From a virus: DNA of 64,000 nt. How positions within the stretch are numbered: position 1 is the stretch's first letter; each line of letters starts with the position of its first letter. Positions 5,740-57,976 of the stretch are shown piece by piece. A model generated the notes under the pieces. That model was not told the DNA's origin, searched no databases, and saw only the letters and a list, made by a program, of their open reading frames with translations. The stretch lies in the IMG/VR virus record IMGVR_UViG_3300008121_000011. One strand, given 5' to 3'. The position numbers and the translations under genes are program-made.

Positions 5740-5815
5740 ACAGCTAACCCTCCATCAAATAAAGTTAGCCGCCCTTTTGGTGCTGCTTTTGGTTTTTTAG
5801 TTTTTACAGGTGCGA

Positions 5816-6740: not shown

Positions 6741-6758
6741 AAAAAGTGATAAAATATT
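6741..6758 (+). promoter_or_regulatory. shared extended -10-like motif aaaaagtgataaaatatt upstream of antirepressor gene
   Basis: Identical 18-mer also at 27303-27320 upstream of the second antirepressor-like gene; contains TGATAAAAT. Confidence 0.4.
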
Positions 6759-6817
6759 GGTGGCTTCGCGATGTTGACAGCATCCAAGCCCGTATAACCT
6801 ACACAACAGGACTACAC

Positions 6818-7672: not shown

Positions 7673-7674
7673 TC

Positions 7675-8310: not shown

Positions 8311-8366
8311 ACCAATGTCTATCAAAATCAAATTCTCTTTGTTGCCTGAGTTGAGGAAAGCATATG

Positions 8367-8668
8367 CTTCCAATCAGCCGATCACTTAACCAGAAGTTTC
8401 ACCACTATCGCCTCTCTTCCAATCAGCCGATCGCTTAACCAAAAGTTTCACCATTCTGAGTTTCCAAAAATTGCAAATAACCTTGCCTTCCAATCAATTG
8501 ATCGTCTAACCACTAGTTTCACCATGAACTAGAGCGCCGCTTTACTGCCTGTATCGGTACTTCCAATCAGCCGATCGCTTAACCAAAAGTTTCACTGGAC
8601 AAAATGACAATTTTATATGTCAGCTACCTTCCTTCCAATCAGCCGATCGCTTAACCAGAAGTTTCACC
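8367..8668 (-). CRISPR. mini-CRISPR-like array: five 37-nt repeats with spacers of 12, 34, 36 and 35 nt
   Basis: Plus-strand repeats CTTCCAATCAGCCGATCGCTTAACCA(A/G)AAGTTTCACC at 8367, 8416, 8487 (degenerate), 8560 and 8632. Spacers are unique. The repeat at 8632-8668 overlaps the nuclease stop codon. Confidence 0.65.
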
Positions 8669-10396
8669 TAACAGATCCCAAAAACCAAGCTGAGAGCCAA
8701 TATTAGGATCGATTTGCGCGGATCGCTTACGAGATTGCAATTTAGAGTCGGCTTTAGATAGTGATTTTAAATCTTGCCATAGCTCAAAGTCTTGTGGTGA
8801 TTGGTTTTCAGAGTTTGCGCGAGTGGTTAGGTTGCGATCTAGCTGTAAATCATTGTCTGGTAAGGGCTTAAGCTTATCAGCTTCCAATCTTTTATCAGTA
8901 CTATTTACAGCCCCGCTTTCGCGGTTGATTGCGGGAGTTGTTTCTCCTCCCGATCCTTTCTTACTCTTGCGAGTCTTACTCGGTTGGCGCTTCTTCCCAT
9001 GCGTTGCATGATCCACGCCCTTAAATTCCCCCGATGAAGCGGGGTATGGTATCAGTACCAAGCCTTTAAAAGCAACATTACGGATAACGGTTGAGGCGTT
9101 GTTATCTGCGTTGTCACCATGACCACAATTCAAGCATTTAAAAACAGCTTGAGATGGTCGAAACTTTTCGGAATAGTAGCCACACTGAGAGCAACCTTGA
9201 GAAGTGTGCGGTGCGGGTACTTTCACAAATATTCTTTCTGATGCTTTAGATTTAGTCTCTAGCATCGTCTTTGTTTTACCGATCGCCACATCATGAAGCG
9301 ATTTATTTAAACCAGCTTTAGCAGCCGATCCGTTGGGTAGAAAAGCGCCATTTTCACCAGCTTTCGCCTTTGGTGCGCGTACCATATTTTTAACTTTGGT
9401 ATCTTCAATGGCGATGCTTTGATATTCACTTACATATTTTGAAGTGAGCTTATGGATAAAGCGATCCCTTTGCCTAGCGATTTTAAGATGCGCTTTAGCT
9501 AGTTTAGAGCGTTTAGCTTTTAGCCTGTTAGAGCCATCTTTTGAGCGAGAGATAGAGCGCTGAATACGAGCTAATTTCTTAGCTTGCATCTTTGCGTAAC
9601 GCTTAGATTTGTGTAGTCTCCCATCACTATCTGCAATAGGAGCGACTACACCAAAATCTAAACCTACTTCTTGCTTTTTTGCTGGTTTAACGGGCTTTAC
9701 ATCTACCGTGCTAGTGAATTGCACATAATAACCATCAGCTTTTTGGACGATGCGTACAATCGTATGATTGCCAGCATAGCGACGGTAGAATCCCTTGCAT
9801 TTGATTTGTCCTAGTCTTGGATAATCAATTAATGCATTGTCATTACCCAAGGGCAAAATATTAACGTATATCCGACCGTTGCCATTAGAAAAGCTTTCTA
9901 ATTTATCAGCTTTCTTTTTGTAACGTGGTCTGCCTTTTTTTCCCTTGCGGTACTGAGTCCATGCATCAATTAGGTTATCCACAACAGATCGCCGTGATTC
10001 GCCATCAATAGAGTGTAGAAAATCAGGACACCGCATATTAGCGATAAAGCGATAATTTTTAACGTGCTTAAATGGCTCTTCAATATCCCGATGTTTGCGG
10101 ATGTCGCATTTATCAGGATAGTAAGCACAGCAAAGCCCGTATTGATTATCAGGATTTACATACTCAATCCCGTCGATTTTGCATGATTTTCGCCATTGCC
10201 ATACTTCAGGACTATACTCTGCCCATTCTTGTTTTGCCCTCCAATAACGTTGCTGATCTTCCTCAAGCAGACTTAAACCAACATTCCATACCCATTTAAG
10301 TTGAGTAAGCCACAAATCAATTTGTGTGCTTTGCTCAATCGTGGGAGACAACTTAAATTCAGTTATCTTTTTAGTAGTGGCTTCATTGCTAGTCAT
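8651..10396 (-). CDS. TnpB/Cas12-like RuvC nuclease (type V-like effector candidate)
   Basis: 581 aa. TnpB-type N-terminus (FKLSPTIEQ...WVWN). RuvC-I GLDFGV, RuvC-II IAIEDT, Zn ribbon CSQCG...CLNCG, RuvC-III GDNADNNAS. About 130-aa low-complexity C-terminal tail. Confidence 0.85.
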   Translation of the reverse strand: MTSNEATTKKITEFKLSPTIEQSTQIDLWLTQLKWVWNVGLSLLEEDQQRYWRAKQEWAEYSPEVWQWRKSCKIDGIEYVNPDNQYGLCCAYYPDKCDIRKHRDIEEPFKHVKNYRFIANMRCPDFLHSIDGESRRSVVDNLIDAWTQYRKGKKGRPRYKKKADKLESFSNGNGRIYVNILPLGNDNALIDYPRLGQIKCKGFYRRYAGNHTIVRIVQKADGYYVQFTSTVDVKPVKPAKKQEVGLDFGVVAPIADSDGRLHKSKRYAKMQAKKLARIQRSISRSKDGSNRLKAKRSKLAKAHLKIARQRDRFIHKLTSKYVSEYQSIAIEDTKVKNMVRAPKAKAGENGAFLPNGSAAKAGLNKSLHDVAIGKTKTMLETKSKASERIFVKVPAPHTSQGCSQCGYYSEKFRPSQAVFKCLNCGHGDNADNNASTVIRNVAFKGLVLIPYPASSGEFKGVDHATHGKKRQPSKTRKSKKGSGGETTPAINRESGAVNSTDKRLEADKLKPLPDNDLQLDRNLTTRANSENQSPQDFELWQDLKSLSKADSKLQSRKRSAQIDPNIGSQLGFWDLLGETSG

Positions 10397-10460
10397 ATAC
10401 TGATAGTATCATAGTATTGATACTATTGACAAGCTTTTAATACAAGCTTTTAATTGTGAT
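10397..10460. promoter_or_regulatory. divergent promoter/operator region between nuclease and HTH genes
   Basis: Inverted ATAGTATCA (10403-10411) / TGATACTAT (10418-10426), each reading TGATACTAT (extended -10-like) toward its gene. TTGACA at 10427. Direct repeat aagcttttaat at 10431 and 10444. Confidence 0.45.
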
Positions 10461-10670
10461 ATGGCTTTAAGAAATATAGTTAAAGAATTTCTGGAAGAAA
10501 GAAAAATAACCGCTTATCAGTTCGTCAAAGAAACGGGGATAAGCGGTACAACTGGCTATGAGTTAGCGCGTAACCCTTGGCATATACCATCTACAGGCTC
10601 AATCGCTAAAATCTGCGATACCTACAAAATTCAACCATCTGAAATTGTTGTTTGGGTAGGGAATGAATAA
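10461..10670 (+). CDS. XRE-family helix-turn-helix regulator
   Basis: 69 aa; ITAYQFVKETGISGTTGYELARN is a classic HTH; divergent from the nuclease gene. Confidence 0.7.
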   Translation: MALRNIVKEFLEERKITAYQFVKETGISGTTGYELARNPWHIPSTGSIAKICDTYKIQPSEIVVWVGNE

Positions 10671-10740
10671 CAGCCGCATAAGCTAAAATCATGAAGCAAG
10701 GTTAAACCCTATTATTAGCGTTGAGTCAGCCCCTTGCAAC

Positions 10741-10773
10741 AAAAAAGCCGATCGCTTGTTGGTCGGCTTTTTT
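10741..10773. terminator. bidirectional rho-independent terminator
   Basis: A6, then gccgatc / ggtcggc stem (7 bp with one G-U), then T6. Confidence 0.6.
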
Positions 10774-11045
10774 GTTGCGTAATCTCCTATACAAAATCCT
10801 GCGAGATACTTGCAATAATTAACCAACCTATCAAAACAAGACTATGCAAGTTTGCGATATTTGCGGCGCTGAAGAGACTAATGGTAATATCTCCTTATCA
10901 GCCGACCGCAATCGGCATATATCTGTATCTAACAAGGACTTGCATTATACAAGGTGTTGCCAGATCGCTATCAGCCGAGGGCGCAAAGGTTGTTTGAATA
11001 GATTAGGAAAAGTTATAGATCTTTCTACTCTGTTTAGTGTTTAGA

Positions 11046-14000
11046 TTACAAACTCAACGCCGCCGCCCGTTGCATCTCTCTCTGAATCTGTAAAGCAATC
11101 TCTGTAGCATTACCACTACCAGTCGTCACGTTTACGTTATAGGTTTTATTGCCTCCTGAATTATTAAGCACGTTCTTGGTTTGATTTGCAGGTAGGACAT
11201 TAGAGCCTCTAGGCAATGTCACAAGCTCAGCACCTCGTTCTCCTACCAATGCCATACCGCCGCGGAAGTTTGTAACACCACTAGCAAAAGCAGGAACTTT
11301 GCCTACCCCTACAGCGCCGCTAAGTGGTGAAGCCCCTTTGGCGACTGATAGAGCGCTGATAATTTGCTGTGCAGACTTACCAAGGATTTGTTGTATCTCA
11401 ATCGCAGACGCTTTATCTAGCGCCCTTTGTTGCTCTTTAAATACTCTCTCACGTTCGATTTTCTGATCCTCAAACGCCCGATCAAGCGCTAGCTCTTTCT
11501 CTTTTTGAGCTAACTTAATCGTCTCTAGCTCAGCATCAGCAGCTTTCCTGAGTTCTAAATCTTCATTAGTTTGCTGTAGTTTTAAAGCACGTTCTTCATC
11601 GGCTTGCTGCTTTTTAATTGCTGCAAGTTCACCTCTCTCGAAAGCTAATTTACTAGCCTGTAATTCAGCTTCGATTTTTTGTTTTTCAGGTTTGAGTACA
11701 GTGTTCTCAAAAGCCAACTTAGCAGCGTTTTGCTCAGCATCAAAAGCCAACTTAGCAGCGTTTAATTCAGCTTCAAAAGCCTTGTCACTAGCTCTCTTGA
11801 CCTCAGTGCGCTTTACATCTTCAGCTTTATCGATTTCAAGCTGCTTGGCTTTGTTGGCTTTCTCCAATTCGTCTAAGGCAAGCTGTACTTTTTTCTGCTC
11901 TTCACCCGTAGCGATCGCGGATACTTGAGCTATTTGCTTGGCTTGAGCAACTAACTGTTCTTGGCTTTGTACTCCGCCCTGTCCTTGGGTCGCTGCTTGT
12001 GCTCTAATGCGTTCTTCTTCTTCGATTTGCGCCGCAATCCTAGCCCGATCTTCGGGCTTGGTAGTGGCGATCGCACCCTCATTACTGATTAATTGCTTAG
12101 CTTTTGACAAAGCCTCAGACGCTTGTTTGTCACGTTGAGCGCGTTGCGCTGCAAACAACTCATCATCTTTGCGTTGCTTTTCTGCCCTCTGTTCCTTAAG
12201 TGCATTTTGCTTATCGTCAAAATCCTGCTTGAGTTTGTTTAGTTTCTCCTCGTTTGCACGTTTCTTGGCATCAAGAGCATCCTCAAGTTGTAGTTTTTTG
12301 GCATTCTGAGTGTCGTCAAATGCGCGTTGCTTATCTTGTAAAGCTAGGGTTTGCTTTTCCTTTAGTGCCTCTGTTTCTAGCGCTTGCTTGCGATCTAGCT
12401 CACCTTTTGCGAGTGCATTTTTTTCTTCAATTGCTTTGATTGCATTGGCATTCTCACGATCTCGTTTGGCTTTGGTGTCTTCAAAGGATCGCTTGATATT
12501 TTTTTCTGCGTCTTGGTTTTGGGCTTCCCTGATTCTTTCAGCTTGCTTGCGTTGTTCATCGATCGCTGATGCTTCCTCTGCTGCTGTACTATTTACCGCA
12601 GCAATTCGATCTTCTAAAAGTTTTTTGCGTTTGGAGAATATTGCAATCTCATTGTTTAGAAGTTTTTGTAAAGCAGGGTTATCAGAAGCGCCTTGAGCTT
12701 GCGCTTTCAAGGAATTAATAGCTAAATCAATATTTTCAACCTGCTCCTTAGTTTCTTTATTAAATTTCGCTACTCCTTCGGCACCTAATCTATTTTTAGC
12801 CCCTGTAGCGTCAATGGCTACACCGTATTTACTCAATACGTTGAGTGATTCGTCGAGGGCTTTGGTATATTCCTTTTGATTTTCAGCAAATACAATTACT
12901 TCTTTTTGTCGCCCCCTTTGCGCCCCAAAAATATCAAAGGTTGCGCCTTGCCTTCCTAGCCCGTCATCAGTGGTTTGTTCAGGCGGCGCTAACTTACCTC
13001 GTTGCGCTTGTAATTCTGCTAATTTTTGCTTGTAATCCTGCAAGCTTTTTGTCGATTCCGAAACATTAAAAGCTGATGATAATTGCTTACCTACTGCAAT
13101 TAGTGGAATCGCAGCAATAGCAATTAACCCCAATGGCGTTGTCAGTGCATACGCCGCTACACTAGCAGCCGTGAGCGCACCTGTTAGCACTCCCGTACCT
13201 ACAGCAAGTGCCCCTTGAGCGATCGCCGCTAATCCCGCTTTAGTGGTTAGCAGTGTAAAGGCATTACTAGCTAGGGTAGTCGCAAAGGTGAGGGCATTAG
13301 CACCAAAAGCTGCAATACCAGCCGCCCCACCAAATAACTTTAACCCCCCAACAAAAGCTGGAGCTGCCGCGCCGATCGCTGTAAGAGCCGCACCTAATGT
13401 AGCAATACCGCCAGTTAGTCCAATAATCGCGCCTAAACCTACTTGAATTGGTGCAGGTAATTGGTTGAATACGTCAACAGCCGCGCCTACAACCGCTATT
13501 AATGGCGCAAATGCTGTTTGTGTACCACGTCCTAAATTTACTAAAGCTTCATTGATTTTGTTGATTGCTGTTGTTATTGTCCCTTCAGCAGATTTAGCAA
13601 CAACATCAAAACCAGTTTGCGCTTTGCCCGAAGCATTGCCAACAGCTACTAGATTCTCATTAAAGTTCTTAAGGTCGTCGTTAAGTAAAGGGACAACAGC
13701 AGTTAAACCATCAATATCTGTAAAGATTTTAGATAGCTGACTACTGGTGGTTAGGCCAGCCGCTTTTAATCGATTGAGTACACCTGTTAATCCTTCAGTT
13801 TTAAGCGTTGTAGCAGCGTTAGTGATCCCAATAGCCTCCAACACTTTTTGTGCGGATTGCGTGGGCTTGACCAAGTTGACAATCGCCTGTCTAATACCAC
13901 TAACCGCAGTCTCGGTTTTAACGCCTTTAATCGTAACGCTTGCTATGGCAGCGTTTAACTCGTTTAGTGTTACGCCCGCACTTGCAGCAATTGGCGCAAC

Positions 14001-14597
14001 TTTACCAAGCTGACCAGCAAATAATCCGATTGTAGTTTTACCTTTATCTTGGACTACTGCTAATTGGTCTACTACCTTAGCAGCATCGCTAGCAGCTAAA
14101 CCATAGGCATTCAAAATTGAGGTAGTTGCATCAGCTACCGTAGCTGTGTCAGTAAAACCAGCCTTAGCACCTAATACCGATACTCTGGCAATCTCTGATG
14201 CATCAGCAGCATTAATAAATCCACTAGATAGAATTTCGTATTGTGCTGTTAATATTTCGGTGCTGGTTACTTGATTGTTTAAATCCTTTGATAGCTTGAT
14301 AGCTGTATTAGCAAAAGCGTTAGATTGAGTAGATAATGTCGCTACTTTAGTTTTGGCAGTATCAAAAGCCAAAAAAGCTTGATTAGCAGCACTAGAAACT
14401 TGATTGAAAGTAGTACCAATCCGTTCTAATGTCTGCGATGTGTTTTGTAATTGCTCAGCTAAATCTCTAGCTTTCTCAGTAGTTGCACCAATAAATTGAT
14501 TAAAAGTTACAGGGCTAGCATCTTCAAATCCTTTTCCGATTTTTTCTAGATTGAGTTTATTGATTTCGCTGTAGTTTTTTGAGCGAAGCTTCAGCAA
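11046..14597 (-). CDS. tail tape measure protein
   Basis: 1183 aa. Tape-measure core-like region (LGAKAGFTDTATVADATTSILNAYGL). Gly/Ala hydrophobic segment, long Lys/Glu/Ala coiled coil, C-terminal GGMALVGERGAELV motif. Annotated start is TTG; see 14557..14736. Confidence 0.85.
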   Translation of the reverse strand: MLKLRSKNYSEINKLNLEKIGKGFEDASPVTFNQFIGATTEKARDLAEQLQNTSQTLERIGTTFNQVSSAANQAFLAFDTAKTKVATLSTQSNAFANTAIKLSKDLNNQVTSTEILTAQYEILSSGFINAADASEIARVSVLGAKAGFTDTATVADATTSILNAYGLAASDAAKVVDQLAVVQDKGKTTIGLFAGQLGKVAPIAASAGVTLNELNAAIASVTIKGVKTETAVSGIRQAIVNLVKPTQSAQKVLEAIGITNAATTLKTEGLTGVLNRLKAAGLTTSSQLSKIFTDIDGLTAVVPLLNDDLKNFNENLVAVGNASGKAQTGFDVVAKSAEGTITTAINKINEALVNLGRGTQTAFAPLIAVVGAAVDVFNQLPAPIQVGLGAIIGLTGGIATLGAALTAIGAAAPAFVGGLKLFGGAAGIAAFGANALTFATTLASNAFTLLTTKAGLAAIAQGALAVGTGVLTGALTAASVAAYALTTPLGLIAIAAIPLIAVGKQLSSAFNVSESTKSLQDYKQKLAELQAQRGKLAPPEQTTDDGLGRQGATFDIFGAQRGRQKEVIVFAENQKEYTKALDESLNVLSKYGVAIDATGAKNRLGAEGVAKFNKETKEQVENIDLAINSLKAQAQGASDNPALQKLLNNEIAIFSKRKKLLEDRIAAVNSTAAEEASAIDEQRKQAERIREAQNQDAEKNIKRSFEDTKAKRDRENANAIKAIEEKNALAKGELDRKQALETEALKEKQTLALQDKQRAFDDTQNAKKLQLEDALDAKKRANEEKLNKLKQDFDDKQNALKEQRAEKQRKDDELFAAQRAQRDKQASEALSKAKQLISNEGAIATTKPEDRARIAAQIEEEERIRAQAATQGQGGVQSQEQLVAQAKQIAQVSAIATGEEQKKVQLALDELEKANKAKQLEIDKAEDVKRTEVKRASDKAFEAELNAAKLAFDAEQNAAKLAFENTVLKPEKQKIEAELQASKLAFERGELAAIKKQQADEERALKLQQTNEDLELRKAADAELETIKLAQKEKELALDRAFEDQKIERERVFKEQQRALDKASAIEIQQILGKSAQQIISALSVAKGASPLSGAVGVGKVPAFASGVTNFRGGMALVGERGAELVTLPRGSNVLPANQTKNVLNNSGGNKTYNVNVTTGSGNATEIALQIQREMQRAAALSL

Positions 14598-14736
14598 TTT
14601 TTGCTGATTCCGCGCCGCCCAAATTTAAGACAGGTGCTTTGATATTACCGATCGCAGATTGCAAAGTTTTGATGTCACTGATCGCCTTGTCGATGCCATC
14701 AAAACTTACTCTAATTGCGTAATTCTCATCAGCCAT
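14557..14736 (-). CDS. 59-aa ORF, probable true N-terminus of tape measure separated by a 1-nt frame change
   Basis: ATG 14736 lies 2 nt after the stop of the chaperone T frame. The ORF runs into the tape-measure frame across an A6 run (14575-14580 on plus as T6). Removing one A fuses the frames. Confidence 0.4.
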   Translation of the reverse strand: MADENYAIRVSFDGIDKAISDIKTLQSAIGNIKAPVLNLGGAESAKIAEASLKKLQRNQ

Positions 14737-14738
14737 AT

Positions 14739-15065
14739 CTAGTCACCCGCTAATAATTCAATCGTCTCGTAATCGCAAATTTCTACAACCCAATTCGGGA
14801 TCTTGCCTTTCTTAAACAGCAAAGCAAACTTCTTGGCAAAGGTTACAGACATCCGTTTTTTGGCTTGCATTCTACGCAATGCTTGCAGTGAAGGGGTAAG
14901 CGATCTAAAGGCTTTCTCACGGTCTTTAAAATCACCAGTAGCTAGGGTATTCCGCGCCGCAATCACCTCTAGTTCAGCCGATCGCTGTAACTCTTGCTCG
15001 TTAATATAAGCAAGATATTGCCTAATTACGCTGATTCGAGTAGACCCGAAATCTCCACTAAATTT
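14739..15065 (-). CDS. tail assembly chaperone T extension (-1 frame, expressed as G-T fusion)
   Basis: The -1 frame relative to 15026..15487 is open from beyond the slippery site down to the stop at 14739. Confidence 0.5.
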   Translation of the reverse strand, partial: KFSGDFGSTRISVIRQYLAYINEQELQRSAELEVIAARNTLATGDFKDREKAFRSLTPSLQALRRMQAKKRMSVTFAKKFALLFKKGKIPNWVVEICDYETIELLAGD

Positions 15066-26022: not shown

Positions 26023-26691
26023 ATGAATTACTGCTACCTTTGCGCCGCCCCTAACGCTGATAAACCGTTAGTTCTCAAAGATTCATTCACTGCACATAGT
26101 AGCGCTAGATGCCCTGAGTCTAAGTATTTATGCGATCGCTGTGCATGGGTGATTCCGTTAAGGGCTTTTTATTGGAATGAAGCCAAGGGGAAATACAGCA
26201 CATTATTTGCTAGGGGCTGGTCATGGCTCCTTTCTGCTGATGATGCGTATGGTTCTTATCCTAAATTTGGTAATCAACATACTGAGGGGGGGAACACGCT
26301 AGAAATAGTTGATCGCCTCCCCACACGCGCTCAAATCAGGACTTGGTTGCTTGATCCGCCAAAGCCGCCCTTTACTATTTGCATTGCGGAATCAGGGCAA
26401 AAACATATTTTGCCTTGGGCGCTAGAGGCAACTAATCGCGATTATTTCCCAGTGCAATTTGAGCTCGATACGTTGCATATATATCGATCTGCCTTTACGC
26501 ATTTACTCGCACGGTACGAGGAGCTTATGGCTATGGGATTTAGCAAAACTGAAATTAATTCTGGCAACTATCGCTCTGACAAATTAGCTAAGTGCATCAG
26601 TGAGTACGCAGCATGTGAGGCTGCGATCGCTGCTAAGCGTGGTAATCGCTTGCTAGATTTGGTTAGCTATGTTGCAAAAGTATCAGAGTAA
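26023..26691 (+). CDS. zinc-finger protein of unknown function
   Basis: 222 aa; N-terminal CYLC...CDRC pairs; PPFTICIAESGQKHILPWA core. Confidence 0.45.
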   Translation: MNYCYLCAAPNADKPLVLKDSFTAHSSARCPESKYLCDRCAWVIPLRAFYWNEAKGKYSTLFARGWSWLLSADDAYGSYPKFGNQHTEGGNTLEIVDRLPTRAQIRTWLLDPPKPPFTICIAESGQKHILPWALEATNRDYFPVQFELDTLHIYRSAFTHLLARYEELMAMGFSKTEINSGNYRSDKLAKCISEYAACEAAIAAKRGNRLLDLVSYVAKVSE

Positions 26692-44237: not shown

Positions 44238-44693
44238 ATGCAAGTAATAGCTTTTACAAACGATGAAGGCGGTGTATCTATCCTTACTCCTATCCTAGAT
44301 AGCGGGCTAACAATAGAACAAATTACAGAAAAAGATATTCCGCTACTCAATGGAGAGCCTATACCTTATCTGATTCTTGATGATTCGGAGTTACCCGATC
44401 GCATTGATCGCGATCGCTGGACAATTCAAGGCAACTCAGTAATTATTGATGAATCGATCCCTTTACCTGAAACCATCAGAGAGATTGATGCAAGGCGTTT
44501 AAGGCTTGCGTTGCATCAATTAAATCTTTTGGATACTGTCGAGACAGTGATTGCCGCATTAGGTCGTGATGCCCAAATCGAATGGGAGTATGCAACCATA
44601 ATTAAAGCGAACTACCCTTTGGTGATTTCCTTATCAAGTGAGCTGGGCTTAAATGTTAGCGAGATTTTTGATATTGCGATCGCAATTAAATAA
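44238..44693 (+). CDS. hypothetical protein (fibre-assembly position)
   Basis: 151-aa ORF, last gene of the plus-strand structural block. Confidence 0.4.
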   Translation: MQVIAFTNDEGGVSILTPILDSGLTIEQITEKDIPLLNGEPIPYLILDDSELPDRIDRDRWTIQGNSVIIDESIPLPETIREIDARRLRLALHQLNLLDTVETVIAALGRDAQIEWEYATIIKANYPLVISLSSELGLNVSEIFDIAIAIK

Positions 44694-45561
44694 AGCTTAG
44701 TTGTACTTGTTTGCTTGGCATTTTAGCGATCGCCTGTAAGTCTGAGCGGATATTCTTCGAGCGATCGCATATCCATAATTTTTCGGTACGCTTTGTATCG
44801 TGCTTAGTCCGCGATCGCCCATTTGATGCGGACATAGTTGCTTCTATCTCTACGCACTTTTGCGCCGATTTAGGTGCGATATTTTGATGGTAGTTGCTTA
44901 GCACATAGCTACTTTCGCAAGCGTCAAGAGCATCGCATAGGGCTTGATAATCGTCTAGGGTGTATCCGTCGTAATGCCCTTGATTTGTCTCAGGATATGG
45001 AGGATCTGCATAGATAAGACCATGTGGACAGTCCCAACGCTTAATAAAGTCAAGAGCATCCTCACAGCCAATATACACATCTCGCAGTCGCTCAAAACAT
45101 TCTGGCAAGCGATCGGCGCGATTTACCCATGTTGCTGCTGAGTTTTGATTGATTACTTGCGTTGCCCACCCTGCCCCAATTCCATTAGCAAAACTCATAT
45201 TGCATTGAATATAAGTAGCCCAAGCAACTTTTAGATCGCTGTACTCAGATGGATTGTTATAGATTTTTCGCGCCTCACGATACTCTTCTTGGCTGTAAGG
45301 AGTGAGTTCTATCCATCGTGCTAATTCGTTAGGTTGCTCTCTTGCCACGCGCCAGAACGTGATTAATTGCTTATTCAGGTCATTAATTGCTTCGCGGTAA
45401 TAGTGACTATTACCGCGATCTATTTTGCCTTTGGCATAGAGTACCGCGCCGCCTCCAAAGAACGGTTCTACATAAACGGTGTGTGGTATCGCCATGATGT
45501 GAGGGACTATTTGAGTGGCAATACGGTTTTTCCCGCCGTAATAAGAACAGGGTGTTTTCAT
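44686..45561 (-). CDS. dam: DNA adenine methyltransferase (Dam / D12 class)
   Basis: YYGGKNRIA, EPFFGGGAV (SAM-binding) and ADPPYP (DPPY catalytic) motifs. ATG 45561 forms an ATGA overlap with the upstream gene. Confidence 0.85.
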   Translation of the reverse strand: MKTPCSYYGGKNRIATQIVPHIMAIPHTVYVEPFFGGGAVLYAKGKIDRGNSHYYREAINDLNKQLITFWRVAREQPNELARWIELTPYSQEEYREARKIYNNPSEYSDLKVAWATYIQCNMSFANGIGAGWATQVINQNSAATWVNRADRLPECFERLRDVYIGCEDALDFIKRWDCPHGLIYADPPYPETNQGHYDGYTLDDYQALCDALDACESSYVLSNYHQNIAPKSAQKCVEIEATMSASNGRSRTKHDTKRTEKLWICDRSKNIRSDLQAIAKMPSKQVQLSFI

Positions 45562-46112
45562 ATAGTTACAGATACATTGCCAAGATGCCCACAGCAAGCC
45601 TTAAACTTTTTAGCTGTGAACTTGCCAAAATAAAATAAAGTCTGACTTGTGTCATTGCCAGATTTTTTCTTTTTGCCATCGTTCTTAGGGTTTGTGAACT
45701 CAAGCCGATGGTTAAAAGTCAAATAGCAAACAGAATAATTTTGAGCATCTAAATACCAATTACTAGAAGTATTACTATTCGTAAGCAGGAAAGTATTACC
45801 AATGTGAGCATAGGTTAAAACCATCTCTACAGCCCTCTCAATGTTGCCTTTGGAGTAAGGAGGGTTAACCCATTTATTTGGGTACTGACTCCAATCCTTA
45901 CTAAATGCGTCATCAGCTTTAGTCCAAAAGGTTTGAGCTTGGATGATTTGATTGGCTCTTAGGCAAGAGAACGGATCGAGGTGAAAACCTTTAACTAAGT
46001 CTCGAAATGGGGTTACTGCATATAGTGGAGAATAGTTCTCATCGTTTTCCTTATCTTCATCAGTATTAAGCACCAATGAAATATCAAATAAATTAGGCTG
46101 TAGAGCGATCAT
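45558..46112 (-). CDS. phage-type N6-adenine DNA methyltransferase
   Basis: 184 aa; WVNPPYS catalytic motif, LLTNSNTSSNWY, and a C-terminal pattern typical of the small phage Dam family. Confidence 0.75.
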   Translation of the reverse strand: MIALQPNLFDISLVLNTDEDKENDENYSPLYAVTPFRDLVKGFHLDPFSCLRANQIIQAQTFWTKADDAFSKDWSQYPNKWVNPPYSKGNIERAVEMVLTYAHIGNTFLLTNSNTSSNWYLDAQNYSVCYLTFNHRLEFTNPKNDGKKKKSGNDTSQTLFYFGKFTAKKFKACCGHLGNVSVTI

Positions 46113-47085: not shown

Positions 47086-47187
47086 TTAGCTGTTAGCCCA
47101 AAAAACACCAAAAAGAGGAACAACAAAAACTAAAACCGCAAAAAACAACCACATAAAAATGTCGAGAAATGCCCCAATGTTTTTCAT
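47086..47187 (-). CDS. 33-aa hydrophobic peptide
   Basis: MKNIGAFLDIFMWLFFAVLVFVVPLFGVFWANS; one transmembrane helix; downstream of the repeat gene. Confidence 0.3.
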   Translation of the reverse strand: MKNIGAFLDIFMWLFFAVLVFVVPLFGVFWANS

Positions 47188-47223
47188 GGAGTGCCAATTT
47201 TTCAGACATAATCTTTTCTTTCC

Positions 47224-47530
47224 TTGATAGTTGTTAGCCATAGCCATAGCCATAGCCAGAGCCATCGCCAGAGCCAGAGCCATCGCCATAGCCATAGCCA
47301 GAGCCATCGCCAGAGCCAGAGCCGTAGCCAGAGCCATAGCCAGAGCCATAGCCATAGCCAGAGCCATAGCCAGAGCCATCGCCATAGCCATAGCCAGAGC
47401 CATAGCCATAGCCATCGCCATAGCCAGAGCCATCGCCAGAGCCATAGCCATCGCCATAGCCAGAGCCATCGCCATAGCCATGGCCAGAGCCATCGCCAGA
47501 GCCAGAGCCAGAGTCAGAGTCATAATCAGT
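47224..47530. repeat. about 300 bp of imperfect hexanucleotide repeats (GCCATA/GCCAGA/GCCATC)
   Basis: Read directly in the sequence; at least four reading frames, two per strand, are open across it in the ORF track. Confidence 0.95.
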
Positions 47531-47545
47531 ATTTAGATCTTCCAT
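47234..47545 (-). CDS. Gly/Tyr/Ser/Asp low-complexity protein
   Basis: 103 aa, MEDLNTDYDSDSGSGSGDGSGHGYGDGSGYG... This frame is preferred because its ATG overlaps the stop region of 47533..47820. Confidence 0.45.
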   Translation of the reverse strand: MEDLNTDYDSDSGSGSGDGSGHGYGDGSGYGDGYGSGDGSGYGDGYGYGSGYGYGDGSGYGSGYGYGSGYGSGYGSGSGDGSGYGYGDGSGSGDGSGYGYGYG

Positions 47546-47820
47546 ACAGCAACCTCCGCGATTGAATCTTTCGCGATTTCTGTCACTGACAGAATTTCAA
47601 TCACTTCAGTGACTATGATTCTGTCAACTTCCGCAGGAAATTTGCAATTACTAGGATCACTAGTTCCTGTTTGAGCTAGCTGAGAAAGGGATGCTGCCCC
47701 TGCCCATTTCCATAAACGCCGAGCGTTGCGTATTGTTGCTTGCTTACCTTCAAAAGCTTCAAGAAATCCCGCGAATACACCCGCGCTGTAAGTTCGCACA
47801 ATTACATATTGATCAATCAT
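47533..47820 (-). CDS. conserved-looking phage protein
   Basis: 95-aa ORF, YVIVRTYSAGVFAGFLE...ARRLWKWAGAASLSQLA. Confidence 0.45.
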   Translation of the reverse strand: MIDQYVIVRTYSAGVFAGFLEAFEGKQATIRNARRLWKWAGAASLSQLAQTGTSDPSNCKFPAEVDRIIVTEVIEILSVTEIAKDSIAEVAVWKI

Positions 47821-49222: not shown

Positions 49223-49429
49223 TTGTAACGTTGTAACACTTACATATAGAACGTATATACAGTAAGTATTTAGATGTGTTACAAGAAGTGTTACAAGGTG
49301 TATATTCAGTAATATTTTAGTAACGCATTACATGTATTTTTGGAAGTGTTACAAGTGTGTTTGAGGTTGTAACGCTTGTCTAACCTATACAGAGTATGCG
49401 ATTAAGGTTAAGTGTTACAGTGTTACAAG
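49223..49429. repeat. iteron cluster, putative replication origin
   Basis: GTGTTACAAG at 49276, 49288, 49346 and 49420. GTGTTACAG at 49412. Inverted TTGTAACAC at 49231 and TTGTAACG at 49223 and 49367. AT-rich flanks. Confidence 0.6.
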
Positions 49430-53571: not shown

Positions 53572-53599
53572 AAAAAAATCCGTCGCGGGCGCAACGGAT
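53572..53599 (-). terminator. rho-independent terminator ending the cas operon
   Basis: Minus strand: AUCCGUUGCGCCCGCGACGGAU followed by U7, 18 nt after the Cas6 stop. Confidence 0.7.
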
Positions 53600-53616: not shown

Positions 53617-54204
53617 TTATTCAAAAAACCCGCATCCTAGATGTTTGCGACCTCCCAACCCTTTCTCTTGTAATACCAAAGACTCGTTAGGGCGCAAATC
53701 TGAAAACATTACAGGGTATACAGCACACGGCTGCTTTTTAATAATTAGCTGCTCTTTGCGCCCTATTGTTGGCAGTGTATTAATATCAAACTTTGCTAGT
53801 TGCTTGCCTAGCGACACCGCAAACCTAGTAAGATCGGGTTCACGATTGTTGTCGGTTTTAATTGATACCCAAGCCGCTAGATTCTCTTGAGATTTTAGCT
53901 CTGTGCCATTAACCAGCTTGAGTTTAATCAACTCTTTGCCTAAATGGATTTGACAATCAAAAAGCATCGTTAGCTCTGTAATTAAATCTTTGGAGCAACG
54001 TAGCTTTATATTGCTTTGAGTTAAACGTAATGTGCGATCGTCAAAAATATTTGTGTTACTGATTCTACCGATCGCCCACTCAGGGTTATCTTTGAACTTA
54101 GGAGATAAGCTGGTCAGCGCTGAATATAAGCAATAGTGATAATTCCGTGGGATTAACGCCCCTTCAATACTGAATAAAAATTCTATAAAATTGCAGTTAG
54201 GCAT
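53617..54204 (-). CDS. cas6: Cas6-family RAMP endoribonuclease (Cmx6-like)
   Basis: 195 aa; FSIEGALIPRNYHYCLYSALTS N-terminal pattern and C-terminal LQEKGLGGRKHLGCGFF glycine-rich loop. Confidence 0.65.
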   Translation of the reverse strand: MPNCNFIEFLFSIEGALIPRNYHYCLYSALTSLSPKFKDNPEWAIGRISNTNIFDDRTLRLTQSNIKLRCSKDLITELTMLFDCQIHLGKELIKLKLVNGTELKSQENLAAWVSIKTDNNREPDLTRFAVSLGKQLAKFDINTLPTIGRKEQLIIKKQPCAVYPVMFSDLRPNESLVLQEKGLGGRKHLGCGFFE

Positions 54205-54556
54205 TGATAATCACCAATCTTTTTTCACTATCTACAGGTTGATGCTTGTTTGCAATAGATAAAAGAAAAAGCCCGTCATTTCCAGCCCTTACCCTATGAG
54301 GTTGCGAACCTTCAACAAAATAGCAAGTTCCTTTGATGATTGGTTGTGTTTCATCGCCGCAATCAATCCATCCAGACCCCTCTACTCCAAACAAAATATG
54401 ATCACCCTCATGGGTATGAAGAGAAGTTTTTTCATTAGGTGCAAAATTCAACATATCAGCAGCAAAGTTATCTTTTTTTACCAGTGGCAATCCGACAGCT
54501 TGACTGCCATGCATCTGATACCAGTAATCAGCATCTAAATAATTTTTAATTTGCAT
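54197..54556 (-). CDS. cupin-domain protein
   Basis: 119 aa; both cupin motifs present (SLHTHEGDHILFGVEG; FVEGSQPHRVRAGN). Confidence 0.7.
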   Translation of the reverse strand: MQIKNYLDADYWYQMHGSQAVGLPLVKKDNFAADMLNFAPNEKTSLHTHEGDHILFGVEGSGWIDCGDETQPIIKGTCYFVEGSQPHRVRAGNDGLFLLSIANKHQPVDSEKRLVIINA

Positions 54557-55214
54557 ACAACAATCCTTTTAGGTATTCAAAATATTCTGGGGCGATCGCT
54601 CGAAACTCTTCTAATCTTGCAGCTTGATATTGATTGTTAGTATTTTTGCTGACATGATCTGTAGTTCGTTTTGCGCCTAAATCATAGGCTTTTAGGTATG
54701 GTAATTCATGGGAAAGCGTATAAGCCCAAATATCGTTTTCACTCCAATTAAAAACAGGGCAAGCTCTGTAATCTCCTTTTTTGTATTGATAGATAGCGCC
54801 ATTTTTTAGCAAGGTTGCTTTACGTTTTGCGCTTTCTTCTATCCGCAATCCAACAAAAGCGACTGGATAATCAATCCATAATTTTTGTGACTTAACTTTG
54901 TTAGGGACATGATCACCTTGCATTAAAATAGTTTGAATGTTTAGCCCAAATTTGTCCTGATATTTTGATTCTGTTTCAGCATAGTTACTAATCATTTCTC
55001 TTTCATAATGTCCAAAAGAAATAGCCAAAATATTAGGACAAATCGACTGCACTAAATGAAGCATTACGACTGAATCTTTACCCCATGACACCGCAACATA
55101 AGAAGGAGCGATCGCTAAAGCCTCTCGAATAATCTCTTTAGCTTTCTCAACTTTGCGCTTAAACGTTGGCAGTGTCGCGTGAGCCAAGAATGCATCGCGT
55201 TCTATTCTCTCCAT
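54546..55214 (-). CDS. PAPS-reductase/CysH-like PP-loop protein
   Basis: 222 aa; PP-loop VSWGKDSVVMLHL; family-typical length. Confidence 0.7.
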   Translation of the reverse strand: MERIERDAFLAHATLPTFKRKVEKAKEIIREALAIAPSYVAVSWGKDSVVMLHLVQSICPNILAISFGHYEREMISNYAETESKYQDKFGLNIQTILMQGDHVPNKVKSQKLWIDYPVAFVGLRIEESAKRKATLLKNGAIYQYKKGDYRACPVFNWSENDIWAYTLSHELPYLKAYDLGAKRTTDHVSKNTNNQYQAARLEEFRAIAPEYFEYLKGLLYAN

Positions 55215-55888
55215 ACATTATCCGTAGGCATATAGCATATAGTTCTATTGGATTGCAGAAAATACGGTGTTCGCCACCCCCAGTTCATCATATTGATAGA
55301 TTGAGGCTGTGGAATCATATTAATTGGCATTGGTCGGGCTAACCTATCACCTCTCCACAAATGCCAATCATGTTCAAAGGGTAGTACTTCCCATTTGTGT
55401 ACCTGTCCGCAACCTTGCGATCGCTTCTTACCAAGATGCGTAACATTTAGAATTAGTTCGCTAATCTTGTCAGCATTGCCAATCGCAAACCAGTGTATAG
55501 TCTGCATTTCGCGATCATATCGTGGTAAATCATAGGCTTTAAAATGCCCTTGCGAACTATCAACCTTAGCTTTCTTTTTACCCCAATCAAGGTGTAGTTC
55601 TTGCTTGTCCCATCGCTTACGGTAACGCTGAGTTTGTTGATGATTTTCGATGTAGTGTGGTGAACTCACGGCCCAATACCACTCGCCTTTGAGCGTCTTC
55701 CGAGCGATCGGCATTTCATCAAAAATCAAGGGCAGATTCTTTTCGGCATCCGCAGCCGTTGGATTGGGCGTGATTAACCCTAATTGGTCTAACAATTGAT
55801 ACTCAATCAGAGCATCAAAGCTCGGACTCCAATCATCATAGGCAACTAGCGGCGTTGCCATGTGTGCAATTATTTGGAGATTATCCAT
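55202..55888 (-). CDS. cas5: Cas5-like RAMP (type IV Csf3-like)
   Basis: 228 aa; ATPLVAYDDWSPSFDALIEYQLL, RYRKRW, IHWFAIGNADKISELILNVTHLGKKRSQGCGQV glycine-rich loop. Confidence 0.6.
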   Translation of the reverse strand: MDNLQIIAHMATPLVAYDDWSPSFDALIEYQLLDQLGLITPNPTAADAEKNLPLIFDEMPIARKTLKGEWYWAVSSPHYIENHQQTQRYRKRWDKQELHLDWGKKKAKVDSSQGHFKAYDLPRYDREMQTIHWFAIGNADKISELILNVTHLGKKRSQGCGQVHKWEVLPFEHDWHLWRGDRLARPMPINMIPQPQSINMMNWGWRTPYFLQSNRTICYMPTDNVWRE

Positions 55889-57086
55889 TGAGTAAACTCC
55901 TAATATCGCTCTTAGAATCAGCTAGAAACCCTTTGTAATCTTCAAGATATTCTTTGTACCTTGCATGAGATTCAGAGGCGCGATCGCTTAGTTTTTGAGC
56001 GTGAGGTGTAATCGTCATAAACTCACCGCGATCGCCGTCAGCGGTCTCAAACCAAAACTGCATAGAGCATAGTCCGCAACCCGTTCCTGATTGACCGCCC
56101 AAGTATGGCGATTCTGCAAACTTGAGTAAAGCATCTGCAATAAATCCTTCCTCAATTCTGGTTACGTTGGCACTCCAAAAACTGTAGAGAGTCGCACCTG
56201 TTTGTAAAAGCCAATTACCCATGATCATTTGTTGGCTTTTCTCTTTTTCAGGCTTTGCTTTTTCGCCTTTCCCTTTCTTGGTTTCAGGCTCCGAAACAAT
56301 GCCAAATAAATCGCCTTGAGTCAGCATCTTTGGAGATTCTGGAGTAGCGCCAATTAGATGTTTTGCAAAGTTAGGATCATGCAATGAATCGCGCCTTGTC
56401 TTTTGGCTATAGGTAAGCCAATCGGAATAATATCGAAGCTTCTCACCTAAAAATGGCATCCATTCAGCAAGCAATGCCTTTAGATTGTATTGAGAAACCT
56501 TGGTATCAATTCCTAGCCATTGATTCACTCGTTGACTATGCTGTAAGTCTTTACCATCAATAATCTGCTCTAGCGCTGAAATTACGTCAATAGGTAGCGC
56601 AGGAGGAAACTGTCGATAAATATATTCAGCACTTTCTACACAAGCCAAATAAGCATCACCAACAGCGATCCGACCGTGCACCATTTGAGCATCGCCAACA
56701 CCAAACAATCCTTTAGGTTTGGCAGTTCCTAGTACTGAGAGGCATGGCAAAAGCTGACGGATTTTTTTGTCCAAATCCAAATCATTACCCGTGCCACCAT
56801 CGATCGCACCGCCGCAAAATAGAGCGTGATGCATCGTTGGCGATACTTGCACACCAATCTGAGAGAGGAAAGAATCAATACCACAGCGTCTCAAAATACG
56901 ATTGCGTAGCGAGTTACCAGAAAGACAAAACACCTCAGAGGGATTTCCCTCTAAATCTGTCACTTTCAACGTTCGTAAATTGGTTTGATTGCCTACAGAC
57001 TCACTGATGTGGCTTAGCGGCTGCAACAGTGTAATTTGCAGGTGTAGCTTGATATTATGGCGATCGTGTGGGTTGTAATTAAGCAT
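55881..57086 (-). CDS. cas7: Cas7-like RAMP backbone subunit (type IV Csf2-like)
   Basis: 401 aa; LSGNSLRNRILRR, HALFCGGAIDGG, GRIAVGDAYL, C-terminal YLGGQSGTGCG loop. Has a Lys/Glu-rich insertion. Confidence 0.6.
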   Translation of the reverse strand: MLNYNPHDRHNIKLHLQITLLQPLSHISESVGNQTNLRTLKVTDLEGNPSEVFCLSGNSLRNRILRRCGIDSFLSQIGVQVSPTMHHALFCGGAIDGGTGNDLDLDKKIRQLLPCLSVLGTAKPKGLFGVGDAQMVHGRIAVGDAYLACVESAEYIYRQFPPALPIDVISALEQIIDGKDLQHSQRVNQWLGIDTKVSQYNLKALLAEWMPFLGEKLRYYSDWLTYSQKTRRDSLHDPNFAKHLIGATPESPKMLTQGDLFGIVSEPETKKGKGEKAKPEKEKSQQMIMGNWLLQTGATLYSFWSANVTRIEEGFIADALLKFAESPYLGGQSGTGCGLCSMQFWFETADGDRGEFMTITPHAQKLSDRASESHARYKEYLEDYKGFLADSKSDIRSLLNG

Positions 57087-57603
57087 TGATAGTAGCCTCT
57101 ACATCTAGAGTATTTTCTGTTTCTTCTGGAATATTCAAAGCGCGATCGCTTTCAAAGCGAACACGACAAAAAGTAGTAATAATGTGCGGTTTTGATTTGC
57201 ACAAACTGAGGATATGTCGATCGCTTATCCCTTCAGGCTTGAGGGAGTTGAGAATATCTTGCCATCCGAGCCATCGCAAATGTTGATCGCTATCAATTTG
57301 TTGAATGTCTCCCATGCTTCCATCTTCATTCACGGAAGCCCGTAAAATTACCTGTTTTGGCGCAATGATGCGAGTCCATTCTTTAGGATTGAGATGTGCA
57401 ACGATTAGCTTTTTTGCCAGATTCTCAATGTAATCATCAATACTTCTTGAGGGAATAGCAGCATTTTGGATACTACTCTGAAAGTATTCCCAAGTCTTCA
57501 AACCCATTGCAGGGCTTTTGCCTTTATCTCTACAGCGAAAAACCCAGTAACTAAGCGCACTGGCTAAAGCTGTAACCCTGTCTTCCGTTCCTATTCCATA
57601 CAT
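57079..57603 (-). CDS. unknown protein in the Cas11/Csf1 position
   Basis: 174-aa ORF overlapping the cas7 start by 8 nt; no Zn finger and no recognisable motif. Confidence 0.45.
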   Translation of the reverse strand: MYGIGTEDRVTALASALSYWVFRCRDKGKSPAMGLKTWEYFQSSIQNAAIPSRSIDDYIENLAKKLIVAHLNPKEWTRIIAPKQVILRASVNEDGSMGDIQQIDSDQHLRWLGWQDILNSLKPEGISDRHILSLCKSKPHIITTFCRVRFESDRALNIPEETENTLDVEATINA

Positions 57604-57631: not shown

Positions 57632-57976
57632 TTATTCTAGATCACAAACAGCATTCCAAGCCGCCAACTTAGCTTTACCGACAGACACACCACGCGTCCT
57701 AGCGTGGTCAAAAGCTTTATTACGCAGTCTACTTAATTCCCGCTGTTTTAGCTCCTTTGGTGTCGCCTTACGTAGCTTAGGGATAGCGCGATAATTACCC
57801 TCAACGCATTCAATATGCAAGCGCCTGTTACCGTATGCGATCGCGCCTTGGTTAAGAAGTAAGCGCAATGCGCTCGTATTGATTTGCGTGCATATTTCAA
57901 TGTAGCGCAAGGAGTAAGAGCCGCGATGGGCATCAAAGAAGCCGATGAGCTTGGCTCGTTCAATTTCTAGAGGCAT
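57632..57976 (-). CDS. hypothetical basic protein
   Basis: 114-aa ORF; 1-nt overlap (shared base 57976) with the upstream kinase-like gene. Confidence 0.4.
   Translation of the reverse strand: MPLEIERAKLIGFFDAHRGSYSLRYIEICTQINTSALRLLLNQGAIAYGNRRLHIECVEGNYRAIPKLRKATPKELKQRELSRLRNKAFDHARTRGVSVGKAKLAAWNAVCDLE

Follow-up and report, generated by a model that had tools for sequence, protein, structure and literature searches.

Subtype IV-B is a common CRISPR-Cas subtype that has no known function, no known RNA source and no known role for its CysH-like protein. The system on a plasmid of Mycobacterium sp. JS623 (7JHY) has four effector families and a CysH-like accessory protein. Members of the subtype usually have neither cas6 nor a CRISPR array, although the literature does not treat this absence as absolute: IV-B loci with Cas6 have been noted as rare exceptions (12 instances; PMC7038947), and IV-B systems in viruses have already been reported (PMC10848311). 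The viral sequence considered here, IMG/VR record IMGVR_UViG_3300008121_000011, is 64,000 nucleotides (nt) long, and this whole stretch is referred to as the window. Its minus strand carries a six-gene type IV operon between positions 57603 and 53617. All four effector families and the CysH-like protein are common to the window and the Mycobacterium plasmid, and the window operon is likewise devoid of a helicase, a nuclease, an adaptation module and an adjacent array. The two differ in that the window belongs to a tailed cyanophage rather than an actinobacterial plasmid, has Cas6 in the operon and a cupin beside cysH (a Coq4-like protein in some relatives), keeps csf1 unlinked, 27 kb off on the other strand, and holds an array and a type V effector in the same genome. 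The usual absence of both cas6 and an array is thus not seen in the window, which has cas6 in its operon and an array in its genome, and since that absence is usual but not absolute, the system is filed as a IV-B variant. Its core is plain subtype IV-B (Cas11, Csf1, Csf2, Csf3 and the CysH-like protein) and not a new type. The identification as subtype IV-B with Cas6, made from profile matches and gene content, is very probably correct. An earlier sequence-only reading of this DNA had proposed a candidate type IV variant mixing features of IV-A and IV-B; the type IV module stands, as IV-B with Cas6, while the hybrid and the new type do not.

The six genes lie at exactly the coordinates given in that reading, and every peptide motif quoted there is found in their translations. 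As assigned by profile, the order of the operon is cas11-csf2-csf3-cysH-like-cupin-cas6. Successive genes overlap by 8, 8, 13, 11 and 8 nt, from 57603 towards 53617, which fits translational coupling. The terminator described at the end of the operon is present as an intrinsic-terminator-like hairpin (minus strand, 53599-53578; feature 53578..53599) with a 9-bp stem containing 5 GC pairs, followed by TTTTTTGTGT. It lies 18 nt past the cas6 stop codon and closes the operon, and a near-consensus promoter for the next gene comes after it. At the other end, 28 nt upstream of cas11, is an open reading frame (ORF) of 114 residues (57632..57976, minus strand), which is 92-97% conserved at that position in close relatives, has no family match in the profile scans and is missing from that position in distant IV-B loci, so that its membership of the module is uncertain. 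Matches of the local 'orf114' hidden Markov model (HMM) at the cas7 position are disregarded, since that model is contaminated with Cas7 sequences.

Profile searches place the RAMP-like proteins in Cas families and not in other families, and uphold all the family guesses previously made for Csf2, Csf3, the CysH-like protein, the cupin and Cas6. The first gene, which had been labelled unknown, encodes the type IV small subunit Cas11 (57079..57603, minus strand, 174 residues; PADLOC typeIV_Cas11, 5.2e-13 and 4.5e-11). By phmmer, this protein matches the product of the gene that takes the place of cas11 in distant IV-B loci at 4.5e-45 to 2.6e-61, and a homologue precedes cas7 in every relative; no solved structure is matched by its sequence. 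The backbone subunit Csf2, or Cas7 (55881..57086, minus strand, 401 residues), matches PADLOC Csf2_0_IV over residues 11-390 (3.7e-43). Its match to the NCBIfam equivalog TIGR03115 is partial and under the cutoff (4.2e-6, 26 bits), which makes it a divergent member. Csf3, the type IV Cas5 (55202..55888, minus strand, 228 residues), matches PADLOC Csf3_0_IV (2.2e-47) and, over its full length but under the cutoff, TIGR03116 (1.3e-17).

The large subunit is encoded elsewhere. When Csf1 of distant IV-B loci is compared by phmmer with all window ORFs, there is one match (2e-59 to 3.5e-65), a 222-residue Cas8-like protein at 26023..26691 on the plus strand, which also matches PADLOC Csf1_0_IV (6.6e-27) and TIGR03114 (1e-10) and has the conserved CxxC...C...CxxC zinc finger. 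The earlier statement that Csf1 is lacking therefore holds at the operon only; it fails for the genome, which has this zinc-finger csf1 at 26023-26691 (+), and the absence of csf1 is not a distinguishing trait of the system, because a selected and co-conserved csf1 sits 27 kb from the operon. A cryptic Csf1 among the neighbouring proteins of 114 and 123 residues was considered and rejected, as neither has a profile match and the real csf1 is elsewhere. In both full-length relatives (73 kb and 80 kb), csf1 is 97-98% identical and again lies tens of kb from the operon, and relatives with csf1 outside the operon keep it elsewhere, while two contigs with truncated cas7 and cas5 have no csf1 match. 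The unlinked csf1 is co-conserved with the IV-B operon.

The system has many viral relatives. Cas7 is found at 90-97% identity in 23 IMG/VR contigs, a Cas7 profile search yields 62 viral loci with identities down to 25%, and a protein database holds 202 Cas7 homologues. These related contigs, cited below by locus numbers (L), show a large phage clade of subtype IV-B. Deposited phages yield no near-identical match to the operon region, tblastn finds neither Cas7 nor Cas6 in 50,697 deposited phage genomes, and no relative of Cas7 is found in one genome each of 185,579 prokaryotic species. By local HMM annotation, the commonest order in the relatives is cas11-cas7-cas5-cysH-csf1, which is canonical IV-B, while L091 has a compact, full version of the window system in the order cas11-cas7-csf3-cas6-cysH-cupin-csf1. 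In the window's own clade, the left half of the operon (cas11-cas7-cas5) is the same throughout and the right half behaves as an exchangeable cassette, which is either cysH (98%)-cupin-cas6, cysH (~55%)-Coq4-like-cas6, or cysH (~26%)-csf1 without cas6. Relative to the 73-kb relative L010, the synonymous divergence dS is 0.52 in cas7 and 0.03-0.11 from cas5 through cas6 (0.03 at cas6); this drop from 0.52 to 0.03 indicates recombination inside the operon. The Cas12-like protein of the window, described below, is 100% identical in L010. Two further arrangements are seen among the relatives: L034, L035 and L051 have a second, divergent Csf3 paralog on the opposite strand (14088-14744, minus strand), adjoining thymidylate synthase, and L052 has a tandem duplication of cas5-cysH-csf1 (3387-8662).

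All seven genes are under purifying selection. The ratio of non-synonymous to synonymous substitution rates (dN/dS, ω) is 0.04-0.41 overall, with ranges of 0.06-0.13 for cas11, 0.04-0.12 for csf2, 0.04-0.19 for csf3, 0.08-0.15 for cysH-like, 0.17-0.32 for the cupin gene, 0.11-0.41 for cas6 and, at informative divergence, 0.11-0.17 for csf1. Such values imply that function is retained, and they bear directly on the view that the locus is a decaying, non-functional remnant of a captured CRISPR-Cas locus. Decay does occur in the clade, since L022 and L023 have truncated cas7 and cas5 and no cas6, and the window array includes a degenerate repeat and an 11-nt spacer remnant. In the window, however, all seven genes are intact, with strong purifying selection and conserved catalytic and structural motifs, and the survey of homologous operons shows the gene set to be conserved in about 60 viral contigs, with protein identities as low as 25-45%. 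Judged from these selection and conservation data, the remnant interpretation is effectively refuted and has next to no probability left. The window has a complete, actively maintained IV-B effector module in a tailed cyanophage, with no CRISPR-type helicase, HD nuclease or adaptation genes among the ORFs of at least 180 residues.

The last gene of the operon encodes Cas6 (53617..54204, minus strand, 195 residues), which belongs to the pre-crRNA (CRISPR RNA precursor) endoribonuclease family Cmx6/PF09559 (6e-33) and passes the cutoff of TIGR02807 (102 bits, cutoff 98.85). Among solved structures, the Cas6 subunit of a type I-B CRISPR-associated transposon (CAST) Cascade (8fcu_B) is nearest to it both in sequence (3e-10) and in fold: an AlphaFold2 model (pLDDT 85) superimposes on that subunit with a TM score of 0.81 (E 9e-15). 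The model keeps the full two-domain RAMP fold and the glycine-rich loop, in which G182, G184 and G190 are invariant. In the 8fcu structure, Cas6 stays part of the crRNA complex. Distant homologues adjoin Cas3, DevT and Cas5d in type I loci. Since the TIGR02807 cutoff is passed, the homologues lie in type I loci and the model superimposes on a Cascade Cas6, the window protein, on its sequence and modelled fold, is a true member of the crRNA-processing family. Its putative catalytic residue, His25, is not conserved across the phage Cas6 family, and catalysis therefore cannot be read from the sequence.

The association of Cas6 with IV-B is recurrent. The gene occurs in at least six IV-B phage sublineages, in varying positions: past cysH and its neighbour X, between cas7 and cas5, between cas5 and cysH, or upstream. 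Co-divergence of Cas6 with the IV-B core was considered and rejected, as Cas6 is only 24-34% identical between lineages whose Cas7 proteins are 46-53% identical; fast evolution of Cas6 or its repeated capture are both possible. Type IV Cas6 proteins have been described as polyphyletic, matching the repeats of the co-resident type I systems they were taken from (PMC7038947). One cas6-bearing IV-B lineage has an intergenic tandem cluster 3-4.4 kb upstream of cas11, with 3-11 units of about 37 nt (L048:5795-6184; L049:2075-2464; L046:4594-4871; L045:4749-4999; L047:2440-2568). Each unit consists of a hairpin, CCCCAC-N4-GTGGGGG, followed by TGxxTC and about 15 variable nt. Unit number and content differ between near-identical phages, and the motif is absent from the other 132 loci. 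The cluster is not a canonical CRISPR array.

The window does contain an array, in a second CRISPR-derived system. The array-less character previously given to the locus is correct for the surroundings of the operon only, since an array of five repeats of 36-38 nt lies at 8367..8669 (minus strand), with three full spacers and one of 11 nt. Its repeat, in the minus-strand reading, is GGTGAAACTT[CT]TGGTTAAGCGATCGGCTGATTGGAAG; one copy is degenerate, and the first overlaps the last codons at the 3' end of a 581-residue Cas12-like, TnpB-like nuclease gene of the type V-U2 class (8651..10396, minus strand). This protein matches PADLOC Cas12u2 (1.9e-104) and, under the cutoff of 350 bits, the NCBIfam V_cas_c2c8 'exception' model (2.2e-87, 294 bits). 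Its RuvC residues D247, E331 and D431 and four zinc-ribbon Cys residues are invariant. The window repeat family occurs on only four viral contigs, all of which have a close Cas12-like gene. A 92% relative of the gene, in a phage whose IV-B operon has decayed, is followed by seven repeats with six unrelated spacers, and these different spacers and the larger size indicate that the array is live. In L022 and L023, which come from different samples, the operon has decayed to Cas7 residues 284-401 and Cas5 residues 1-132 (about 9878-11632), and neither contig has a match for cas6, cysH or csf1; both keep the Cas12-like gene with a seven-repeat array. That the array is enlarged where the operon has decayed shows that it belongs with the Cas12-like gene. 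The array at 8367-8669 was therefore rejected as IV-B's own: its repeat occurs only with the Cas12-like gene, overlaps the 3' end of that gene and outlives the decay of the operon. The Cas12-like gene and array are best regarded as a system separate from IV-B and as a candidate source of crRNA in trans.

Such co-residence is widespread in the clade. A Cas12-like gene is found at 27 loci in a wider survey, almost always with an array of 6-34 repeats behind it. In a clade of three sublineages at 43-45% Cas7 identity, a IV-B operon without cas6 is followed by a Cas12-like gene and then by an array of 6-34 repeats; in related phages with the layout of IV-B operon, Cas12-like gene and array (L064:14161-20912; also L062, L063, L054 and L126-L135) the arrays have 10-34 repeats. 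In L064 there are two Cas12-like genes in convergent orientation, with separate arrays whose repeats are of different classes (CTTGC...GTTGAAAC and GGTGAAAC...ATTGCAAG), and in L036 a Cas12-like remnant lies between cas6 and csf1. The 75 unique spacers of these relatives with IV-B, Cas12-like gene and array have no detectable target. The synteny was considered as proof that the two systems share crRNAs and was rejected, since the three sublineages are related (81-84% Cas7 identity) and shared descent suffices. V-U2 arrays are also found on large contigs with no IV-B match. These observations show that two CRISPR-derived systems are commonly found together in freshwater cyanophages of about 70-90 kb.

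Class 1 Cas6 enzymes leave an 8-nt 5' handle on the crRNA, with the consensus AUUGAAAG/C, and the ends of the array repeats resemble it: the repeats end in ATTGGAAG, GTTGAAAC or ATTGAAAC, relatives having repeats of the form CTTGC...ATTGAAAC, and the window repeat ends in AUUGGAAG. Because the window holds both Cas6 and a V-U2 array whose repeat end AUUGGAAG is of this kind, Cas6 might serve the V-U2 system alone, processing the Cas12-like array and being merely encoded in the IV-B operon, which itself would make no use of crRNA. Against this, V-U2 arrays are present, and larger, in phages without cas6; the 80-kb full-length relative with a cas6-type operon has no match for the Cas12-like gene or the repeat, other cas6 contigs being only partly covered; and cas6 overlaps the preceding operon gene by 8 nt and lies inside IV-B operons in several lineages. 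Service to the V-U2 system alone is accordingly very unlikely.

The interpretation preferred here, tentatively and at somewhat less than even odds, is that the operon encodes a non-cutting RNA-guided complex loaded by Cas6 with crRNAs made elsewhere, which acts by blocking or through the CysH-like protein and the cupin. The presence of Cas6 implies a repeat-derived crRNA. Cas6 would cut CRISPR transcripts supplied in trans, the candidate sources being the phage's own five-repeat array beside the V-U2 Cas12-like gene and, in relatives without such an array, host class 1 arrays. Cas6 would then stay on the crRNA or hand it over, and Csf3, the Csf2 filament, Cas11 and Csf1 would assemble a Cascade-like complex on it. 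By analogy with type IV-A, this complex would bind complementary nucleic acid without cutting. Its output could be simple blocking; otherwise the CysH-like PP-loop enzyme and the cupin would act, either on the target that the complex has bound or on a small substrate containing sulfur. The likely use would be in conflict with other phages, mobile elements or the host. In favour of this reading are the CRISPR array in the same genome and, in another clade, the IV-B operons directly upstream of Cas12-like genes and arrays; the scavenging of crRNAs by IV-B has also been discussed (PMC8175902).

Several observations weigh against such Cas6-dependent guiding. No crRNA source is seen physically tied to the operon: there is no canonical CRISPR array in flanks of up to 10 kb on each side of any cas6-bearing IV-B locus, and the window array tracks the Cas12-like gene and not the operon. 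No cognate repeat could be assigned to Cas6, and the window repeat folds only weakly (z = -1.5). The window spacers have no target in related loci, deposited phages or viral contigs. No host array with the window repeat is found in prokaryotic genomes or JGI metagenomes; the repeat core has no match in one genome each of 185,579 prokaryotic species, and its 11 matches in the metagenomes are single chance matches and no arrays. Loading with host crRNAs would mostly give anti-phage guides, possibly directed against this very phage. Furthermore, the only IV-B complex so far studied bound heterogeneous, non-CRISPR RNA (PMC7937560).

A supply of crRNA by the host would also fit a quite different role, in which the phage Cas6 and Csf proteins act as an anti-CRISPR (Acr) sponge that sequesters host pre-crRNAs and crRNAs and starves the class 1 effectors of the host, with no recognition of a target; the CysH-like/cupin pair may chemically inactivate the captured RNAs. 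As most cas6-bearing IV-B loci have no array of their own in the flanks examined, the substrate of Cas6 must come in trans, most obviously from the host. The resemblance of Cas6 to type I-B Cas6 points the same way, as do the genes around the operon, which serve replication and nucleotide metabolism and may be active early after infection, and a sponge has already been proposed for IV-B in print (PMC7038947, PMC8175902). However, seven genes would be needed where known Acr are single small proteins, and the idea was judged unlikely on that ground (PMC7038947). It leaves the arrays and Cas12-like effector of the same phage clade unexplained, as well as the strict pairing of a CysH subfamily with a metalloenzyme, and no host repeat has been identified for comparison. 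A sponge is therefore considered unlikely.

That pairing is the second unusual feature of the operon. The CysH-like protein (54546..55214, minus strand, 222 residues), the signature accessory gene product of IV-B, is a PP-loop enzyme of the PAPS-reductase/CysD family (PF01507, 1.8e-17), and the solved structures that it matches best are those of the sulfate-adenylylating CysD and of PAPS reductase. The PP-loop S-x-GKDS and the motif G.R..E..R are invariant in an alignment of 49 homologues, in which there is no conserved C-terminal Cys. This agrees with the description of the IV-B protein CasCysH, which has a PP-loop and no catalytic Cys and is probably an enzyme acting on the alpha-phosphate of ATP rather than a reductase (PMC8175902); the window protein is like CasCysH in both respects. 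The phage IV-B CysH-like proteins fall into two groups, a window type (at least 40% identity) and a divergent type. An adjacent cupin or Coq4-like gene accompanies 16 of the 18 distinct window-type sequences and none of the 27 divergent ones; the split is complete, albeit among sequences that lack phylogenetic independence. The cupin and the Coq4-like protein never co-occur beside CysH.

The cupin (54197..54556, minus strand, 119 residues) is a small metal-binding protein with both cupin motifs (PF07883, 8.9e-9) and invariant metal-ligand residues H47, H49, H53 and H87. Its AlphaFold2 model (pLDDT 94.6) is closest in the PDB to SbzM (9ug7; 32% identity, root-mean-square deviation 1.1 Å), a cupin dioxygenase whose substrate, L-cysteine, is oxidised and decarboxylated (PMC6331615). 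The cupin always adjoins a PP-loop enzyme, and it is also found in phage contigs without cas genes, directly past a PP-loop protein with an SGGIDS motif. In two contigs this cas-independent module has three genes (L090:213-2342; L092:6242-8369), encoding a 215-residue protein, a 375-residue PP-loop protein with the SGGIDS motif and no Pfam match, and a cupin 61% identical to that of the window. The Coq4-like protein (199-255 residues), which replaces the cupin beside window-type CysH (L002, L006, L009, L017, L032, L036, L039, L041, L060, L063 and L071), has an invariant HDxxH...E motif and matches Pfam Coq4 at 2.5e-5, over the gathering score for L036. Eukaryotic COQ4 has been reported to perform an oxidative decarboxylation. 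By gene neighbourhood, the cupin appears to be a specific functional partner of the CysH-like protein, which gives a lead for the chemistry only; sulfur or adenylate chemistry of the pair is likewise a lead and not a result.

The same pairing gives substance to the proposal that the module is independent of guides altogether. The Csf proteins would then form a filament on non-CRISPR RNA, with Cas6 merely an RNA-binding or capping subunit, and the real activity would be an enzyme pathway in which the CysH-like adenylating enzyme and the cupin or Coq4-like oxygenase/decarboxylase make or alter a small molecule, sulfur-containing or nucleotide-linked, or modify a nucleic acid. The tight coupling of one CysH subfamily to its partner enzyme, the occurrence of a PP-loop/cupin pair without cas genes, the likeness of the cupin to the cysteine dioxygenase/decarboxylase SbzM (PMC6331615) and of the CysH-like protein to CysD and PAPS reductase, and the lack of conservation of the putative catalytic His25 of Cas6 are all in its favour, as is the heterogeneous RNA binding of the Mycobacterium complex, the sole IV-B biochemistry at hand (PMC7937560). 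On the other hand, the glycine-rich loop and two-domain fold of Cas6, and its selection in many lineages, are hard to explain without a repeat-type RNA, and CRISPR arrays are common in the same phage genomes. The 27 CysH sequences without a partner also mean that the enzyme pair cannot be the core function. A guide-independent module is thus rather unlikely. Cas6-dependent guiding and the enzyme pair may also be combined: Cas6-processed crRNAs from phage type V or host arrays would steer the nuclease-free Csf complex to a target, and the CysH-like protein with its thiol-dioxygenase-like cupin or, interchangeably, its Coq4-like metalloenzyme would chemically mark the nucleic acid bound there or make a sulfur-containing, adenylate-type signal or toxin, so that IV-B would be a means of RNA-guided enzyme delivery. 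This is a long shot; if true, it would give subtype IV-B its first defined biochemical output.

The tailed cyanophage setting of the operon, as previously proposed, is borne out by tailed-phage genes, an excess of the HIP1 palindrome typical of cyanobacteria and the cyanobacterial binning of relatives. The window encodes a tape measure protein, large terminase, portal, major head protein, two DNA methyltransferases (44686-45597 and 45558-46112) and a primase-helicase. HIP1, GCGATCGC, occurs 89 times in the whole window against 0.83 expected from shuffles, and the relatives are binned as Pseudanabaena or Cyanobacteriota, some of them carrying NblA. The neighbours of the operon are replication and nucleotide-metabolism genes (dCTP deaminase, primase-helicase). 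All 38 window ORFs of at least 180 residues were covered by a Pfam, PHROGs or PADLOC scan. Among them, in accordance with the sequence-only reading, there is no CRISPR-type helicase, HD nuclease or adaptation gene: Cas1, Cas3, Cas4, Cas10, DinG and RecD are all absent from this set, most shorter (Cas2-sized) ORFs being outside the scan, and the sole helicase-type protein is the replicative primase-helicase. Searches of the window for Rfam families and tRNA genes yield nothing. Three further repeats are present. The hexanucleotide TAGCCA is repeated in about 46 copies at 47183-47577, with a higher-order period of 42, and in the minus-strand reading would encode a repeat of the Gly-Tyr-Gly-Ser type; similar repeats occur in L006, L017 and L021. 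Four copies of a 67-nt repeat at 4457-4925, spaced by 132-135 nt, lie within a 628-residue ORF (3853-5739, minus strand) and imply a 45-residue protein repeat, probably in a tail-fibre-like protein, which adjoins a Gp80 fibre-domain gene. Iteron-like direct repeats with the motifs GTGTTACAAG and GTTACAGT are found at 49261-49427, just downstream of the primase-helicase gene, and by their form and position may be a replication origin.

Several other described systems share features with the window. In subtype IV-A, as in the window, Cas6 is encoded with Csf proteins, and both are presumed to bind in a nuclease-free, crRNA-guided manner. In contrast to IV-A, the window has no DinG or other non-replicative helicase (among ORFs of at least 180 residues), has Cas11 and the CysH-like protein, has a Cas6 of the Cmx6/type I family rather than Csf5, and has no array within 43 kb of the operon. 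The 'atypical type IV-B' of Fuxivirus, from viruses of Bathyarchaeia (PMC10848311), is also virus-encoded, with a CysH-like gene beside Csf3 and a mini-array in the genome; there the virus is archaeal and the mini-array lies inside the IV-B locus, and the consulted sections of that report mention neither Cas6 nor a cupin. The array of the window lies 45 kb from the operon, where it adjoins a separate Cas12-like gene. An Actinomyces conjugative plasmid (PMC12669027, Extended Data Fig. 7) resembles the window in carrying array-less IV-B and a type V effector with a small array on one element. It differs in being a plasmid whose V-B3 effector, Cas12b3, is RuvC-inactive, whereas the D/E/D triad of the V-U2-class protein in the window is intact, and Cas6 is not mentioned in the consulted part of that paper. 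The closest match to the region 8367-10396 is the V-U2 locus of cyanophage vB_AphaS-CL131 (PMC6293099), in which a short array follows a TnpB-like effector and the neighbourhood holds no further cas genes; the paper mentions no type IV genes.

A literature search for this combination of features gives no report of a large cyanophage IV-B clade with a stably embedded type I-like Cas6, of a split csf1 or frequent co-residence with V-U2 arrays, or of a division of CysH into two subfamilies with strict coupling of one to a cupin or Coq4-like protein. Given that IV-B with Cas6 and IV-B in viruses are already on record, the unusual features are the Cas6, which is stable and recurrent, and the cupin or Coq4-like partner of the CysH-like protein. 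The built-in Cas6 implies a repeat-type RNA substrate, and the likeness of the cupin to the cysteine-oxidising SbzM points to a chemistry that can be tested. With seven genes adding up to about 4.7 kb, the system lends itself to direct reconstitution. It is a good experimental entry to the function of IV-B. Relative to the plasmid systems studied so far, the phage clade offers three handles that those systems lack, namely Cas6, candidate crRNA sources and a partner enzyme.

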